Of a stretch of 64,000 nt of DNA, positions 4,087-11,517 are shown one piece after another. How positions within the stretch are numbered: position 1 is the first letter of the stretch; each line of letters begins with the position of its first letter. Origin of the DNA: Candidatus Bathyarchaeota archaeon (lineage in GTDB: Archaea; Thermoproteota; Bathyarchaeia; 40CM-2-53-6); assembly GCA_963733055.1 (NCBI GenBank), contig CAVTBR010000001.1:1216001-1280000 (forward strand), read 5' to 3'. A model generated the notes under the pieces. The model was not told the DNA's origin and ran no database searches. It was given only the letters and a program-made list of their open reading frames with translations. The position numbers were made by a program, and so were the translations under genes.

Positions 4087-4500
4087 ATGAAAGTTGACGA
4101 TTATGACGTTCCCGATGGACTCCGTTACACCAAGGAGCATGAGTGGATGAAGGTGGAGAACGGGCTATGTCGTATTGGAATAACAGACTACGCTCAAAAG
4201 TCGCTACACGAGGTCGTTTACGTCGACTTGCCGCAGTTAGGTAAGAATTTAGCCCAAAACGCGGCGTTCGGTACAGTAGAGTCGGTTAAGGCGGTTTCGG
4301 AGCTTTACTCCCCAGTTTCCGGCGACGTCGCGGAGCGTAACGAGAATTTAGTCCAATCGCCTGAATCAGTGAATCAGGATCCGTATGGGACCGGCTGGAT
4401 TGTCATAGTTAAGCCTTCACAGTTAGAGACGGATATGAAGACGCTCTTGAGCACCGAGAGTTACTCAGCTTTTCTGAAGGAAGTTATCAGGAAGAAGTGA
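4087..4500 (+). CDS. gcvH: Glycine cleavage system H protein
   Basis: YTKEHEW, GITDYAQ, VESVKAVSELYSP lipoyl-lysine motif. Confidence 0.96.
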   Translation: MKVDDYDVPDGLRYTKEHEWMKVENGLCRIGITDYAQKSLHEVVYVDLPQLGKNLAQNAAFGTVESVKAVSELYSPVSGDVAERNENLVQSPESVNQDPYGTGWIVIVKPSQLETDMKTLLSTESYSAFLKEVIRKK

Positions 4501-5052: not shown

Positions 5053-5757
5053 TTGCCCGTAGTGGTAGAGAAGATTTCCGTTGGTTGTACTAGCCTCGAT
5101 CGAATGATTCATGGAGGTTTCACTAGAGGAGAGGTGGCGCTGATTTATGGCGAAGCCGCAACAGGAAAAACTACTACTGTAATTCAAGCCGCCGCTTCCT
5201 CGGCTGAGATGAAGCTGAAAGTGATCTACATTGACTCAGATCGCTCCTTCACCCAACAGAGGTTTGGCCAAATTGCGGGAAATCAATCCAAGGAAATCAG
5301 CGAACTAATCTCGCTATTCTTTCCTGATACGTTTTCAGAGCAAAGAGCTATGATAGAATCTCTGGAGAATTATGTTACGCCCTCACTGGGAATGGTGGTA
5401 GTCGATTCTGTCAGCTCATTGTATCGCGCCGCCTTTTCCGACACGGCCAGCATCTTCAGTCTAAACCGCGACCTGGGTGGACAACTAGCGTATTTAGGTG
5501 AATTAGCTTCCTCGCACAACATCGCCTGCGTGATTACGAGCCAGGTCCATTCCCGCCTAAAGCCTCCCATGACCGATATCGAACCCGTCGCACGCAGGAC
5601 TCTTTTCCATTTTCCGCGAACAATTCTCAGGACTAAAAACACTCCCAAACCAAGCGTGAGAGAATTTGTTCTGGAGCGATTCAACGGGACCGATATTCCC
5701 AGAGTTAGCTGTTTGGTGCGATTGCAGGAAAATGGGCTAGCCGACAGCGCAGCCTAG
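5053..5757 (+). CDS. radB: DNA repair protein RadB (RecA family)
   Basis: GEAATGKTT Walker A, YIDSD, VVVDSVSSLYR Walker B, TSQV; no RadA N-terminal domain. Confidence 0.82.
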   Translation: MPVVVEKISVGCTSLDRMIHGGFTRGEVALIYGEAATGKTTTVIQAAASSAEMKLKVIYIDSDRSFTQQRFGQIAGNQSKEISELISLFFPDTFSEQRAMIESLENYVTPSLGMVVVDSVSSLYRAAFSDTASIFSLNRDLGGQLAYLGELASSHNIACVITSQVHSRLKPPMTDIEPVARRTLFHFPRTILRTKNTPKPSVREFVLERFNGTDIPRVSCLVRLQENGLADSAA

Positions 5758-5798: not shown

Positions 5799-6308
5799 GT
5801 GAAAGAATTGTGGCCGCAACCGCAGGATTGGCTCTCAGCTCTCTACATAATCCTGCCCACATACTGCGCGAACGCAGCCCCCGTAATCTTCGGAGGCGGA
5901 CGCTCGATCGATTTTGGAAAGAAATTAACCGACGGACAAAGAGTCTTCGGAGACAACAAGACATTTCGCGGGTTCATTAGCGGAATCATCGTCGGAACAT
6001 TGGTCGGCCTCCTCTGTTCCTACGTACTCTCCCGGAATCTGATTTCGATCGCGATCCTCGCTTCAGTGGGGGCTTTGCTTGGGGATTTGGCGGGGGCGTT
6101 TCTGAAGAGACGATTGCATATTAGGCCTGGAGACTCGTTGCCTGGCGTGGATCAGCTAGATTTCGTAGTAGGATCCTTGCTCTTTGTTTCGCTCTTTTCG
6201 CCAATCCCCACTACGGTCATCCTGATCCTGCTTGTTGTTACTCCACCGATTCACTTTCTAACGAATGTCGGTGCCTACCTTCTCGGTCTGAAAGAGAACT
6301 ACTGGTAA
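5799..6308 (+). CDS. carS: CDP-archaeol synthase
   Basis: PTYCANAAPV, DGQRVFGDNKT, GDLAGAFLKRR, DQLDF motifs. Confidence 0.93.
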   Translation: MKELWPQPQDWLSALYIILPTYCANAAPVIFGGGRSIDFGKKLTDGQRVFGDNKTFRGFISGIIVGTLVGLLCSYVLSRNLISIAILASVGALLGDLAGAFLKRRLHIRPGDSLPGVDQLDFVVGSLLFVSLFSPIPTTVILILLVVTPPIHFLTNVGAYLLGLKENYW

Positions 6309-6314
6309 ACGACG

Positions 6315-6782
6315 TCAGCCAATCTTAGTGTTGATCAGTTGAGTGGAGTAGGCTACAACTATGAGGACGGTCACGGTTCCAAGAATCAAAAGAAGGTATG
6401 CGTTGCGCGGCCTGTAGGCATACCTCGTGCTACGAAGAAGCATGTAGAGACCGGCTAGACCGAGAAAATATAGGAACGCAGCAATCAGGCTCTCATTCAA
6501 AGTCTGTTGACCGAGAGTACCTTGGATTACCACGGAATATCCGTATGATGTGGGCAGTAGCGAGATGGGATGCTCAAGTATATCGTAAACTCCGCCGGCC
6601 AAAACGAACCCAACGAAGAGAACGACTCCCAACGCCAAAACCGTTGTCGAAGGTTTCATCCTGCGTGTGGTCGGCCCTTTCAAACCACGGAACGAGTAAC
6701 CTAGGTTACCAAACAGCCGTTGCATCTTCCATGGTATTCTGCGTAGTCTGATGCGAAGACCTTCGAACATGTGATAGTTCAC
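6315..6782 (-). CDS. OSTC/DC2-like (OST3/OST6 family) three-TM membrane protein
   Basis: PS..V.AL....F.LAGGVYDI...P, Q...E...AFL..LG..G....RS and terminal K.G align by eye with eukaryotic OSTC/DC2; start could be ATG 6770. Confidence 0.7.
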   Translation of the reverse strand: MNYHMFEGLRIRLRRIPWKMQRLFGNLGYSFRGLKGPTTRRMKPSTTVLALGVVLFVGFVLAGGVYDILEHPISLLPTSYGYSVVIQGTLGQQTLNESLIAAFLYFLGLAGLYMLLRSTRYAYRPRNAYLLLILGTVTVLIVVAYSTQLINTKIG

Positions 6783-6855
6783 TACGCAGCTGGAACGACC
6801 AAGAGGCTAAAATATGTTGCCTTGCTTGTTGGTCGTCCTTAAGCGTGGTTCAATT

Positions 6856-7032
6856 TTGCCCCAGAAGATTTTCTGTCAGGAGTGCGGCTCAGTCCTTTAT
6901 CATGGGTTGGAGCTTGAGACTCCAATGGAAATCATACAACGGCATAATGGTATATGCCCTCAATGCAAGAGGAAACTCGACTTCGAAACCGAGAAGGTCA
7001 AAATCGCCCCAAACGAGGAAGTAGCAAAGTAA
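6856..7032 (+). CDS. Small zinc-ribbon protein
   Basis: CQEC...CPQC; likely TTG start at 6856 (MPQKIFC). Confidence 0.7.
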   Translation: MPQKIFCQECGSVLYHGLELETPMEIIQRHNGICPQCKRKLDFETEKVKIAPNEEVAK

Positions 7033-7081
7033 TCAGTGCCACATCGAATCTCCTGACGTAAGAGTACCTCAGTGAAGTGGT

Positions 7082-8209
7082 TTGCCTAAAAACGTGCAAA
7101 TACAAGCCTTTCACGAGAACAATGGACATTTGACCGAGTTTGCTGGTTACAACCTCCCGCTTTGGTTCAAAGGAATAATCCCAGAATCACTCGCCGTCAG
7201 GAACGCCGCCGGAATCTTTGACGTTAGCCACATGGGCCGGGCGTTGGTCGAAGGTCGAGACTCGGTACGATTCCTAGATCACATTACAACAAACGATGTC
7301 GCATCTCTCGGTAAATGTGTGGGTCAGTACTCGCTGCTCTGTAATTCGGTCGGCGGAATCAAAGACGACATTCTAGTCTTCGACCTGAAGCAGGATCAAT
7401 ACCTGATTGTGTATAATGCCGCCAACCGTGAAAGTGACTACGAATGGTTCGACTCGAACAAGGAGGGGTTTGACGCAGAGATTCAGGACGTATCCGATGA
7501 TGTCGCAATGTTCGCGGTACAAGGCCCGAAAGCCGTCCCGTTGATTACTAAACTTGCCGATGCACCTCTCGGCAATTTACCGCGCTTCGCCTGTGATTGG
7601 GCGGAGATCGCCGGGTCTAAAGTTCTGGTTTCGAGAACAGGTTACACGGGTGAAGATGGATTCGAGATATTCGTTTGGGACGCCCCTATTGGAAACGACG
7701 TGAACGCGCAGAAAGTTTGGGATAAGATACTGGAGGCGGGCAGACCGGAAGGACTTGAGCCATGCGGCCTAGGTGCGAGAGATCTATTGCGACTTGAGGC
7801 GGGACTCTGCTTGTACGGCACTGACATGGACGAAAACACGAACCCCTTCGAAGCAAAATTGGGATTCGTTGTCAAGCTGAACAAGGACTTCATTGGACGG
7901 AGCAGTCTGCAAACAATCAAGGAAAAAGGTCCCGCGAAATTGCGAGTTGGTGCTGTAACAGAAAATCGAGTGATACCGAGACACGGGTTCAGCATCCTCC
8001 TCAATGAAGAAGAAATAGGCCGAGTAACAAGTGGCACCCTCTCTCCCCTCCTCGATAGGGGGATCGCAATGGGTTACGTGACCCCGCAATATGCAAGTCA
8101 GAATAACGCTGTCAAAATCAAGATTAGGGATAGAGTTGAAGGGGCAAAATTCGTGAAGCCCCCGTTCTACGACATAAGCAAGTATGGATACTCACGGAAG
8201 ACTCAGTAG
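7082..8209 (+). CDS. gcvT: Glycine cleavage system aminomethyltransferase T
   Basis: FDVSHMG, VQGP, SRTGYTGEDGFE, GLGARDLLRLEAG. Confidence 0.96.
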   Translation: MPKNVQIQAFHENNGHLTEFAGYNLPLWFKGIIPESLAVRNAAGIFDVSHMGRALVEGRDSVRFLDHITTNDVASLGKCVGQYSLLCNSVGGIKDDILVFDLKQDQYLIVYNAANRESDYEWFDSNKEGFDAEIQDVSDDVAMFAVQGPKAVPLITKLADAPLGNLPRFACDWAEIAGSKVLVSRTGYTGEDGFEIFVWDAPIGNDVNAQKVWDKILEAGRPEGLEPCGLGARDLLRLEAGLCLYGTDMDENTNPFEAKLGFVVKLNKDFIGRSSLQTIKEKGPAKLRVGAVTENRVIPRHGFSILLNEEEIGRVTSGTLSPLLDRGIAMGYVTPQYASQNNAVKIKIRDRVEGAKFVKPPFYDISKYGYSRKTQ

Positions 8210-8221
8210 CGTCGGTCGGTT

Positions 8222-8536
8222 CTAGTCGCGTTCCAGTTTAGATCGAAGCCACTTCAGCGGACCTTCCCCCTCAGCGCCCGCGTAAGGGACCGTTTCTCTT
8301 GTCTCAGTCATCGCGGAAGTTGGGGTAAGGACTGTAACGATCGGAGTCCAACGAAAGCCCTTCAGGCTTGGCATAGGCGCGCCGCATTCTATGCACTGCT
8401 CTAATCCATCTGGGTTGGGGGTTCCGCATTGGGAACAGTATATTGGATTTAGAATCGAACCGCAATTAATGCAGTACCTCCCATCGCTGACATTCGCCTT
8501 TCCGCAAGATGGGCAAGACAAGTAGGCATCAGGCAT
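8222..8536 (-). CDS. Double zinc-ribbon protein
   Basis: Four CxxCG motifs; ATG at 8536 (MPDAYLSC). Confidence 0.75.
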   Translation of the reverse strand: MPDAYLSCPSCGKANVSDGRYCINCGSILNPIYCSQCGTPNPDGLEQCIECGAPMPSLKGFRWTPIVTVLTPTSAMTETRETVPYAGAEGEGPLKWLRSKLERD

Positions 8537-8696
8537 GGTATGATTCCCAATCCACACTGAAATCAGTCATTCGGCCTGACAAGGTTTTCGGACATTGATG
8601 ACTCGAAACTCAAACCGGCTTACATTGAAATCGCAGGCACACACGTCCAGAGTGTGAATGACAAGGCGATTGAATCGGTCGTTCTGCTTCATCAAC

Positions 8697-8705
8697 CTTT
8701 TATAA
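8697..8705 (+). promoter_or_regulatory. TATA box candidate for aglB
   Basis: CTTTTATAA about 40 nt upstream of ATG 8746. Confidence 0.5.
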
Positions 8706-8745
8706 CGCGCTCAAAGTGTACCTTCGAAAATCTGCGGGTGCATAA

Positions 8746-11517
8746 ATGTCAGCTACCGGCCGAGCCCTGAGAAAAGCTCGAAGCGTGATGGGCAGGTACG
8801 TAAACCGCGAGGTCCTAGCGGAACGTGTCGACGGCATTCGCAAAGCAGCGTCAGGAGTTTCTCGCGGGACTGTTCTAGAATACATCGCCCTCGGACTGAT
8901 AGTGATCATCGCCCTAGCTGTTAGATTGATGCCAATTCGCTGGGGATACTACCTCAACGAATTTGACCCATACCTCCAATGGCGAATGGCACAGTTCACA
9001 GTCGATCATGGTTTTCTCGCTTGGTTCCAATGGCATGACAGCATGAGCTGGTTCCCATACGGTGCCGACATGCCGACTTGGAACTTGTACGGTGAAGCGT
9101 TCGTTGTCGCGGCCATAGTAATGCTGCTACGCTTCATGGGGATAGGAGTTGCAGTGTTCGACGTAGCCATGGTCTTCCCTATTGTTGCAGGAACAATTAC
9201 GGTGTTGATCGCATATTTCCTCGGTAAGGATTTCTGGGGAAAAGGCGCTGGAATGTTAACCGCCCTGTTCCTAGCATTGAACCCTAGCAGCATCGGACGA
9301 ACTCAGCTCGGCTTCTTGCGTCACGAGCCCCTTGGGATTCTTCTAATGCTTGTGATCTTTCTCTCATTCCGTCGAGCAACGGTTGCCAGTTCCTCAACAC
9401 GCAAAACTATCGCGTACTCGGCAATAACAGGCTTCTCACTTTTCTATCTCGCAGCAGAATGGGCAGGCTCCCTCTTCCCACTCGATCTGATCCCCCTATA
9501 CGTCGTTGTCCTCGTCTTGGTCGGGCGCTATTCCAAGAAACTGCTTCTGAGCTATTCCCTTTCAATGGGCATCTTCCTTCTCTTCACTCCGTTCCTCGTC
9601 CCGAAACTCGGATTCGGTTCACTTACCGACCTCACATGGTTGGCTGTTCTCGGAGGAGAGCTGGTTCTCGTTGCTCGGGAAGCTTCGTCGTACCTTGAAA
9701 GTAATAGGATGCGGGTCTACACATTAGGAGCCGTCGTGCTGGGAACTGCGGCGCTCGTCGTAGTCCTCTCTTACTTCAACATCGCTGTAATACCATACGG
9801 CAAATTCTACGCCGTCATCAACCCATTCGTCCGCGGCGATGTTCCGATCATCGCTAGCGTTGCCGAACACCAACCAGCAACATGGGGGAGCTTCTTCTAC
9901 GAGTTCGGCGCCATAACTTTCCTAATTCTATTCGGAATAGTCTTCGTAATCCAGAGAGGTAGAAATGAAGATATATTCACAATCCTCTGGGCAGTAACCG
10001 GGGTCTACTTCGCCGCATCATTCGTGCGACTGACACTGTTACTCGCTCCCGTCTTCTGCATTCTAGGTGCAATTGGTACTGTTGAGTTAGGGAAACCCGC
10101 GGTTGACATTGTGCGAGAGGCCGTCATCTATCCGAAACGCAAGACTCGCGTAATCTCCAGGATAGGGCGGGAGTTTGGAGTCGCCATCTTCCTCATCTTG
10201 CTAATTGCCATAATTCCAACCTTCTGGACCGCCGTGCGGGGATCATACCAGCCTGCAACCATAGTCACGTCCAGCATTCCAACGGCACCTGCAGCCGGAA
10301 ATGAGCTGAAATACCAAGATTGGCTCGAAGCGTTATCGTGGATGCGTTTGAACACGCCGCCAAGCTCAGTTGTATTTGCGTGGTGGGATTACGGTTACTG
10401 GATAACGGCGCTCGGGCAACGTAGTACAATTGCGGACAACGGAACCCAAAACTCAACGCAGATAGGAATGGTCGCCCAGACTTTCCTCGATAACATCACG
10501 TTTGCACTTCCCAACCTTCAACGTTACAATGTTTCGTACGTAGCAATCTTCATCACCCCATCGAGCAGTAGCTCCGGAGGATGGCAGGGATTCGGTGAAG
10601 ATGGTAAATGGTATTGGATGGCCCGCATCGGGAACAATACCATGTGGAACGACAAATACCTGGTCAACTTCTATGTGACGAGCACCAACCCTCAGACTGG
10701 AGCTAGCGATTACTCACGAGTAATCAGGGCCCCAGTAACGAAGACGATCATAAGCAACGACACGCTCACGACCAGTGCACAGCTGAACGCGAATTCGATG
10801 CTCGGTTACATGATGACTTATGTTACGTCAAGCACTCAAACTACACCATCACCGTACCTCACTCAAGTATTTCAGTCAACTAACAAGTTCGTATACTTGT
10901 TCAAAGTGAATTTGATCAAGCAAAGTTTCATCACGATGCGGCCGGTCAATTCACAAATTGTGTACGGAACTCCGGTGACCATGACGGGCAACATTACGGA
11001 TACGAGTGGAAACCCACTCACCACGCAACCTGTGCAAGTCGCTTTGGAGTCGTCTGTTGATAGTGGACAGTCGTGGCAACAAATCGGAACGGTTACCGCT
11101 TCACCAAACGGTGCGTATAACTACACAGCACTTCCGAACGCGGGCACCTACGAGATTCGCGCCCACTACAGTGGCAGCTCAACATACGGCGACATCGTCT
11201 CAACGCCCCAAACAATTGTCGTTTCAAAGGCGAACGCCACCCTAACCCTATCAACTTCACCCGCCACATTCAGCCAAGGGCAAAACATCACGGTGACCGT
11301 AACACTCTCACCCTACGTGACAAACACGAACGTAACGGTCGCCTACACTTTCGACAATAAGACTTTCACCCCGGTCGATACGCTACTCATGACCTCGCCG
11401 ACAATGAGTTTCACATGGAAGGCCGATGTTCCAGGCACCTTCATGTTAGTCGCTACTCTGCAGGCAGGTACGAACTACAACCCTGCAACCGCATACCTCA
11501 CGATCCGCAGATCGTAA
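8746..11517 (+). CDS. aglB: Oligosaccharyltransferase AglB/STT3 with C-terminal Ig-like domains
   Basis: NEFDPY, ~13 TM helices, SVAEH, WWDYG, DNGT and EDGKWYWM (DK-type motif); Thr-rich beta-strand C-terminal ~200 aa. Confidence 0.95.
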   Translation: MSATGRALRKARSVMGRYVNREVLAERVDGIRKAASGVSRGTVLEYIALGLIVIIALAVRLMPIRWGYYLNEFDPYLQWRMAQFTVDHGFLAWFQWHDSMSWFPYGADMPTWNLYGEAFVVAAIVMLLRFMGIGVAVFDVAMVFPIVAGTITVLIAYFLGKDFWGKGAGMLTALFLALNPSSIGRTQLGFLRHEPLGILLMLVIFLSFRRATVASSSTRKTIAYSAITGFSLFYLAAEWAGSLFPLDLIPLYVVVLVLVGRYSKKLLLSYSLSMGIFLLFTPFLVPKLGFGSLTDLTWLAVLGGELVLVAREASSYLESNRMRVYTLGAVVLGTAALVVVLSYFNIAVIPYGKFYAVINPFVRGDVPIIASVAEHQPATWGSFFYEFGAITFLILFGIVFVIQRGRNEDIFTILWAVTGVYFAASFVRLTLLLAPVFCILGAIGTVELGKPAVDIVREAVIYPKRKTRVISRIGREFGVAIFLILLIAIIPTFWTAVRGSYQPATIVTSSIPTAPAAGNELKYQDWLEALSWMRLNTPPSSVVFAWWDYGYWITALGQRSTIADNGTQNSTQIGMVAQTFLDNITFALPNLQRYNVSYVAIFITPSSSSSGGWQGFGEDGKWYWMARIGNNTMWNDKYLVNFYVTSTNPQTGASDYSRVIRAPVTKTIISNDTLTTSAQLNANSMLGYMMTYVTSSTQTTPSPYLTQVFQSTNKFVYLFKVNLIKQSFITMRPVNSQIVYGTPVTMTGNITDTSGNPLTTQPVQVALESSVDSGQSWQQIGTVTASPNGAYNYTALPNAGTYEIRAHYSGSSTYGDIVSTPQTIVVSKANATLTLSTSPATFSQGQNITVTVTLSPYVTNTNVTVAYTFDNKTFTPVDTLLMTSPTMSFTWKADVPGTFMLVATLQAGTNYNPATAYLTIRRS

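Follow-up and report, generated by a model that had tools for sequence, protein, structure and literature searches.

Archaeal AglB is still widely described as a single-subunit oligosaccharyltransferase (OST; e.g. PMC8993221). Homologues of OST1 and OST3/6 occur in eukaryotes and in TACK (Thaumarchaeota, Aigarchaeota, Crenarchaeota and Korarchaeota) and Asgard archaea (Carilo 2024, PMC11417166), an AlphaFold model of the Sec61/OST/TRAP complexes of the Asgard archaeon MK-D1 has been superimposed on the human translocon (PMC11417166), and Ost3 is among the homologues found in Asgard archaea (Eme 2023, PMC10307638). Because these two papers report the homologues and the MK-D1 model, a multi-subunit, translocon-associated archaeal OST is already a published idea, as is the presence of the family in TACK archaea. 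In eukaryotes, DC2 (OSTC) and KCP2 are accessory subunits specific to the STT3A complex; both occur in animals, multicellular plants and Dictyostelium and are absent from fungi; KCP2 has been reported, together with DC2, for eukaryotes having STT3A (PMC5674889). So far, the evidence for archaeal accessory OST subunits comes mostly from Asgard genomes. OST3/6 is also said to have been listed as a eukaryotic signature protein in Asgard archaea and TACK by Zaremba-Niedzwiedzka and colleagues in 2017. Here we describe a gene for an OSTC/DC2-like protein that lies close to aglB in a 64,000-nucleotide stretch (the window) of a Candidatus Bathyarchaeota archaeon (contig CAVTBR010000001.1, positions 1,216,001 to 1,280,000; the genome has 2.88 Mb in 3 contigs and is an estimated 96% complete).

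An earlier note, made from the DNA sequence without database searches, had proposed this three-helix protein and AglB as a candidate two-subunit, eukaryote-like OST that would be coupled to the translocon; it also mentioned OST3/6 homologues from Asgard and some TACK archaea, in agreement with PMC11417166. On the evidence set out below, the product of the gene is probably a membrane subunit of the archaeal OST, without a catalytic role and homologous to OSTC/DC2, and so to helices 2–4 of Ost3/Ost6.

Sequence, fold and distribution of the OSTC-like protein

The protein strings quoted in the earlier note are all present in the translation of the open reading frame (ORF) at 6315..6782 on the reverse strand. 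Because 32 relatives (71–93% identity) begin at the fifth codon of this ORF, with the sequence MFEGLRI or MLEGLRI, the real product is probably the 151-residue protein given in Table 1.

When the protein was compared with 177,635 PDB sequences using phmmer, the only significant matches were human and canine OSTC/DC2. Residues 34–142 aligned with residues 19–131 of the 149 in human OSTC (6s7o chain H; E=2.5e-6), and the alignment contains the segments of the human sequence on which the earlier note had based its comparison. Matches to OSTC were also found with profiles: one built from 33 close relatives gave E=4.6e-7 against 6s7o chain H, and one built from 24 Bathyarchaeia and Asgard sequences gave E=1.4e-13 (54 bits, residues 16–143 of 149). 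With the same 24-sequence profile, MagT1, the human Ost3/6 orthologue, reached only E=0.93 (12 bits), and yeast Ost3 and Ost6 were absent from this search of the PDB at E≤10. The Pfam OST3_OST6 family (PF04756) matched with E=1.6e-5, at 25.0–25.1 bits against a cut-off of 27 bits, so that a family match of the kind on which the earlier note had staked its proposal was indeed found; the match covers only profile positions 180–288 of 294, corresponding to the last three helices. Of the 24 members of the profile, 22 match PF04756 at E≤0.01 (the best at 1.6e-8), and many close relatives already carry a precomputed PF04756 label. By sequence, therefore, the protein is a true relative of eukaryotic OSTC/DC2, with a similarity well beyond chance.

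In an AlphaFold2 model of the monomer (mean predicted local distance difference test (pLDDT) score 69), the protein has three helices in all, at residues 42–65, 91–114 and 121–150, preceded by ∼40 residues that include amphipathic helices; a short hairpin lies within the first loop. Searching the PDB with this model using Foldseek placed OSTC chains at ranks 1–4 (probability 1.00, E 3.3e-3 to 1.8e-2), with TM-scores on the target of 0.45–0.63 and identities of ∼23–28%. These were followed by yeast Ost3 and then by MagT1 and Ost6. Lysine and arginine residues are distributed unevenly: their mean number is 9.7 in the first 41 residues, and means of 2.7 and 1.1 were obtained for the loops that join helices 2 and 3 and helices 1 and 2, respectively. 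This pattern places the basic N-terminus in the cytoplasm and the short C-terminus outside. The basic N-terminal segment of ∼40 residues is conserved across the archaeal family, as is a basic cytoplasmic loop, STRYAYRPRNAY. There is no thioredoxin domain, and no other Pfam domain was matched. A search for fused or longer homologues of at least 278 residues found none at E≤0.001, a null result that carries little weight. With moderate confidence, the predicted fold and the topology are also OSTC-like.

The title of PF04756 in Pfam, ‘OST3 / OST6 family, transporter family’, raises a different role, that of a small cation (Mg2+) transporter, in line with an earlier proposal for MagT1/TUSC3 within the family; the regulation of cellular magnesium by MagT1 is restated in a review (PMC7226087). 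We regard this as very improbable for the archaeal protein. It has no more than three helices, the alignment shows no evident pattern of charged or polar residues lining a pore, and its nearest relative is OSTC rather than MagT1; MagT1 itself has been solved as a subunit of OST-B (6s7t).

The family is conserved throughout Bathyarchaeia, and its range extends to some other groups of the phylum and to Asgard archaea. A word-indexed search gave 287 proteins at E≤0.001 among 579 candidates, and most of the 120 listed matches are unnamed or called hypothetical. Scanning 1.84 billion cluster representatives with the 24-sequence profile in HMMER gave 419 clusters at E≤0.001, of which 171 were at E≤1e-10; lengths were 100–200 residues for nearly all of the 150 clusters listed. 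In contigs taken at one genome per species, the Bathyarchaeial profile found 36 loci, titled as Bathyarchaeia or Bathyarchaeota (25), ‘archaeon’ (1), bacteria (3) and Asgard archaea (7: four Hodarchaeota and one each of Heimdallarchaeota, Thorarchaeota and Odinarchaeia). The Asgard proteins, ∼142–153 residues long from the chosen starts, have three hydrophobic segments and align end to end with the protein from the window. In an even sample of 401 genomes from the phylum, 131 held a match at E≤1e-5. These included all 59 sampled genomes of family codes f2–f15 (same order or class), and there were no matches in some other families (for example, 0/56 in f16, 0/17 in f20 and 0/23 in f25).

Two observations on database entries arose from these searches. 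Three loci (L004, L010 and L019) are clearly archaeal, with CarS, AglB and eIF2-alpha in the same order, and are titled as metagenome-assembled genomes of Acidiferrales, Methylomirabilota and Acidoferrum; they are probably mis-binned contigs. Separately, the name given by one source to the close relatives P0011 and P0021, which are three-helix proteins of 152–157 residues, looks like an annotation error.

AglB, the predicted complex and other candidate subunits

The AglB encoded in the window is the sole STT3 match in its genome. Its best PDB match is human STT3A (E=6.5e-78, 266 bits, residues 40–648), followed by yeast Stt3 (220 bits) and STT3B (217 bits), and archaeal AglB entries in the PDB match it only in the C-terminal domain. 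The motifs EFD (residues 72–74, in external loop (EL) 1), SVAEHQP (371–377, in EL5) and WWDYG (at 546) were identified, the first two being invariant in 14 sequences. Beside WWDYG is a double sequon, DNGTQNST (564–571), a trait that has been reported for TACK and Asgard AglB (PMC8993221). Judged by these sequence features, the protein is an AglB of the eukaryote-like type. Beyond the part that aligns with STT3A, the C-terminus (residues ∼735–923) contains two bacterial Ig-like group 3 domains (PF16640, Big_3_5, E=5.4e-12); the AglB ORFs of some relatives are shorter, for example 748 residues in L043.

We predicted the complex of AglB residues 40–720 (alignment of 14 sequences) with the OSTC-like protein (alignment of 24), using three unrelated partners as controls. 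The score for the pair was 0.69 (runs of 0.69, 0.68 and 0.72) and the best of the three controls scored 0.00. In the calibration, 116 of 157 solved complexes and 2 of 215 mismatched pairs attained this mark. At least 83% of the contacts were common to the runs, with a pLDDT of at least 68 for the partner. The complex check named in the earlier note came out in favour of a predicted interface. On the AglB side the predicted interface comprises residues 360–403, 413–427, 447–455 and 473–491, which were assigned from the STT3A alignment and the hydrophobic stretches to the end of EL5, transmembrane helix (TM) 10, TM11, the TM12–13 loop and TM13. In yeast OST, three helices of Ost3 contact TM10, 11 and 13 of Stt3, and Ost3 helix 2 helps to form the groove for the lipid-linked oligosaccharide (PMC7226087). 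The predicted site of the archaeal protein on AglB thus appears homologous to the Ost3 site on Stt3.

According to the model, the three helices of the OSTC-like protein would pack against helices 10, 11 and 13 of AglB, and the outside loop of the protein would touch the C-terminal part of EL5, which carries the catalytic SVAEHQP motif. The cytoplasmic loop STRYAYRPRNAY would touch the loop that joins AglB helices 12 and 13, which is likewise cytoplasmic and conserved. By analogy with yeast and human OST, the protein may stabilize AglB and form one wall of the groove for the lipid-linked glycan, leaving the membrane face away from AglB and the basic N-terminus free for partners such as SecYEG.

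A variant, which is the reading of the earlier note, takes the protein as the same AglB-bound subunit, with the tethering of AglB to SecYEG for glycosylation during translocation as its main job. DC2 mediates the contact of OST-A with Sec61 (PMC10859629, PMC5674889), a docking study packs helices 3–4 of yeast Ost3 against Sec61 subunits (PMC7226087), and the Asgard Sec61/OST/TRAP model superimposed on the human translocon was reported to have significant structural homology (PMC11417166). The archaeal family is also far nearer to OSTC than to MagT1 in the profile search, lacks the thioredoxin domain and keeps its basic segment on the cytoplasmic side. Set against this, there is no sec gene near the locus, all three helices contribute contacts to AglB in the best predicted run, and the cytoplasmic tail of the ribophorin-I homologue encoded in this genome is only ∼50 residues long; a ribosome-binding four-helix bundle has been described for the human and MK-D1 ribophorin-I proteins (PMC11417166). 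We therefore consider tethering as the main function possible, yet clearly less probable than a subunit role as such.

The ribophorin-I/Ost1 homologue is encoded on another contig (G000:C3, ∼741113–742525; L039, 1366–2778), where the PF04597 scores sum to 70.8 bits. As read from its sequence, the 470-residue protein has a signal-peptide-like hydrophobic N-terminus, many N-x-S/T sequons and one C-terminal hydrophobic stretch, after which comes the tail mentioned above. Since the genome encodes this protein as well, ‘two-subunit’ is probably an undercount: of the proposal in the earlier note, the homology, the predicted AglB interface and the recurrent linkage described below hold up, and the number of subunits probably does not. 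On the analogy of the yeast and human enzymes, the OSTC-like protein, AglB and the ribophorin-I homologue could make up a minimal multi-subunit OST.

Searches for OST48 (PF03345), DAD1 (PF02109), Ost5 (PF05251) and Ost4 (PF10215) gave no match in this genome at E≤0.01, with controls that were silent or uninformative, and KCP2 (PF09775) gave no match in a search that was likewise silent in every control genome. A separately encoded thioredoxin-type Ost3 was considered and rejected. Elsewhere in the genome PF04756 has two short matches, both confined to the thioredoxin part; the one that was inspected (L040) is an ordinary soluble thioredoxin with a WCAPC motif and no membrane helix, and the same search matches bacterial control genomes.

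Linkage to aglB and the gene neighbourhood

The genes around the OSTC-like gene are collected in Table 1. The earlier note had placed the gene about 2 kb from aglB, and the distance between the two ORFs is 1,963 bp.

Table 1. Features of the window around the OSTC-like gene and aglB
Feature	Position	Strand	Remarks
GcvH	4087-4500		
RadB	5053-5757	+	
CDP-archaeol synthase CarS	5799..6308	+	PF01864 E=4.1e-46; NF003114 above cut-off
OSTC/DC2-like gene	6315..6770	-	151 aa from conserved Met (probable start); mechanical ORF 6315..6782 = 155 aa
Divergent intergenic region	6771..6855		85 bp between OSTC-like and small zinc-ribbon genes
Small zinc-ribbon protein	6856..7032	+	~58 aa; TTG start at 6856 (MPQKIFCQECG...CPQC); mechanical ORF 6814-7032; relatives start at MPQ
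Glycine-cleavage T protein GcvT	7082-8209	+	
Double zinc-ribbon gene	8222-8557	-	
AglB/STT3	8746..11517	+	923 aa; Pfam STT3 PF02516 E=8.6e-38
Ig-like C-terminus of AglB	10948-11517	+	residues ~735-923

The linkage recurs in relatives. AglB was found in the same arrangement in 19 of 20 loci from close relatives (68–90% identity), the exception ending at a contig edge; among these 20 loci the linkage is ordinary synteny. For a wider sample, the OSTC-like gene was taken with as much as 9.5 kb of sequence on either flank from 40 further genomes of 33 family codes of the phylum, some stretches being shorter at contig ends. The stretch held AglB in 18 of these 40 loci, between 193 bp and 7.8 kb away and in 11 cases within 2 kb. 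As a 19-kb stretch makes up ∼1–2% of these genomes by our own estimate, 18 of 40 is far above chance. The OSTC-like gene and AglB are divergent in 14 of the 18 loci and share a strand in 4; no convergent pair was seen. An Odinarchaeia contig also has AglB, as a fragment, 4.1 kb from its OSTC-like gene. The simplest order was seen in five loci (L062, L064, L075, L083 and L087), with the OSTC-like gene, the small zinc-ribbon gene and AglB following one another and nothing else between them. In 9 of the 18 AglB-holding loci, the gene immediately before AglB and reading in the same direction is the small zinc-ribbon gene; in the window, GcvT and the double zinc-ribbon gene now sit between the two.

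Several observations weigh against assigning the gene to an AglB complex, on the side of linkage and on that of homology and structure. In the window, the OSTC-like gene and aglB are separated by GcvT and zinc-ribbon genes and are not co-transcribed. In a sister group of Bathyarchaeia (∼50% identity), nine loci are without AglB, which was found elsewhere in four of those genomes, and 22 of the 40 phylum loci hold no AglB within the stretch. RadB (29/40) and CarS (21/40, 17 of them within 150 bp), neither of which has a known tie to glycosylation, are conserved as neighbours at least as often as AglB. Part of the linkage may thus be inherited synteny, with shared ancestry inflating the count of 18 in 40. 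Ribophorin I, detected in 52 of the 401 phylum genomes, does not strictly co-occur with the OSTC-like gene, which by a hand tally is present in 12 of the 29 ribophorin-positive genomes outside the class. The PF04756 score remains below the family cut-off, the monomer model is of moderate quality, and no Foldseek match reached E≤0.001. Lastly, because the STT3A–DC2 and Stt3–Ost3 complexes have been solved, the high score of the predicted complex may reflect recall of these structures, and would then speak for likeness and not for binding.

The constancy of CarS allows another explanation, namely that the protein is a diverged homologue which no longer works with AglB and acts in membrane-lipid metabolism together with CarS. 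The close spacing of the two genes in 17 of the 40 loci fits with this, as does the sister group, which keeps CarS adjacent and not AglB. The order of RadB, CarS and the OSTC-like gene is kept even in the Odinarchaeia contig (L035, 8475–11685). However, the CarS and OSTC-like genes are convergent, with 6 bp between their stop codons in the window, so they can have no common promoter, and we know of no member of the OST3/OSTC family that acts on lipids. The predicted interface with AglB is confident, with controls at zero, and the five loci with the simplest order have no CarS nearby and stand directly beside the zinc-ribbon gene and AglB. A lipid-related role is thus unlikely, and we treat CarS as a conserved neighbour and do not claim it as a part of a glycosylation machine; a subunit of the AglB-based OST remains our preferred assignment for the OSTC-like protein.

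Some features of the neighbourhood are noted here in their own right. Many families of the phylum, and the Odinarchaeia contig, retain RadB and CarS followed by a convergent OSTC-like gene, with no functional reason evident; the other six Asgard loci show none of RadB, CarS and AglB as neighbours. The genes for GcvH and GcvT are split by the block of RadB, CarS, OSTC-like and zinc-ribbon genes, and two relatives, L012 and L013, have no GcvT in the interval from the zinc-ribbon gene to AglB. From the positions of the two gene starts, the 85-bp divergent region is likely to be a shared promoter region of the OSTC-like and zinc-ribbon genes. The small zinc-ribbon protein itself has only weak Pfam hits, and its atlas neighbours are hypothetical proteins. 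The gene could be a small conserved one and nothing more; co-transcription with aglB is the other possibility. It was rejected as a specific third subunit: it is found in 305 of the 401 genomes, including all 56 of family f16, where the OSTC-like gene was found in none of the 56.

Significance and comparison with known subunits

None of this overturns published work, as OST1 and OST3/6 homologues in TACK archaea are already in print (PMC11417166). What is added is the likeness of the archaeal protein to DC2 rather than to Ost3, together with its linkage to aglB; a literature search, which did not cover supplements, found no report in which the archaeal family is called DC2/OSTC-like rather than Ost3-like or described as aglB-linked. 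Outside Asgard archaea, the locus adds a family that is universal in the sampled Bathyarchaeia, has the DC2 architecture, stands repeatedly beside aglB and is predicted to occupy the Ost3/DC2 site. It also provides a concrete protein pair, AglB and the OSTC-like protein, plus an Ost1 homologue, for reconstitution, and is relevant to the question of the subunit's ancestral form.

An archaeal family that by sequence is nearer to DC2 than to Ost3 sits awkwardly with a late origin of DC2, and a phylogeny is needed before more is claimed. We tentatively put forward a broader scheme, which we hold to be possible, yet clearly less likely than the assignment of the single gene. In this scheme, the DC2 type would be the ancestral form of OST3/OST6/OSTC and would have been paired with an STT3A-like AglB before the split of Asgard archaea and Thermoproteota, with Ost3/Ost6 arising later by fusion of a thioredoxin domain and a helix. 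In a non-Asgard archaeon, a minimal three-part OST (AglB, Ost1-like and DC2-like) would dock on SecYEG and glycosylate emerging chains. If this were true, the DC2-type subunit would not be a late, STT3A-specific addition of animals and plants, and co-translocational N-glycosylation would predate both eukaryotes and Asgard archaea.

The closest described counterpart is human OSTC/DC2, a subunit of the STT3A complex OST-A (PDB 6s7o chain H, 8b6l and 8pn9). Like the archaeal protein, it has ∼150 residues, three helices and no thioredoxin domain, and in both the N-terminus is inside and the C-terminus outside; a lumenal C-tail and a lumenal loop have been described for DC2, implying the same orientation (PMC5674889). 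Two motifs align between the human and archaeal proteins: GG-x-YD, located in helix 1, and Q-x-x-x-E, which precedes helix 2. The partner of OSTC/DC2 is STT3A, and the predicted partner of the archaeal protein is the STT3 homologue AglB. The two differ in that their identity is only ∼23–28%, that only the archaeal family has the cytoplasmic loop STRYAYRPRNAY and that the archaeal protein comes from a non-Asgard archaeon, which has no endoplasmic reticulum.

Yeast Ost3/Ost6 and human MagT1/TUSC3 (PF04756) share with the archaeal protein the last three helices of the Pfam model. They have an N-terminal lumenal thioredoxin domain with a CxxC motif and four helices, whereas the archaeal protein lacks both the thioredoxin domain and the first helix, and the sequence similarity of yeast Ost3/Ost6 and MagT1 to it is much weaker than that of OSTC. 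The site of yeast Ost3 on Stt3 (TM10, 11 and 13; PMC7226087) is the same as that predicted for the archaeal protein on AglB. Finally, the proteins reported as ‘OST3/6’ in Asgard and TACK archaea (PMC10307638, PMC11417166) probably belong to the same family as the one described here; the excerpts of those reports use the name OST3/6 and make no mention of DC2/OSTC or of a missing thioredoxin domain.

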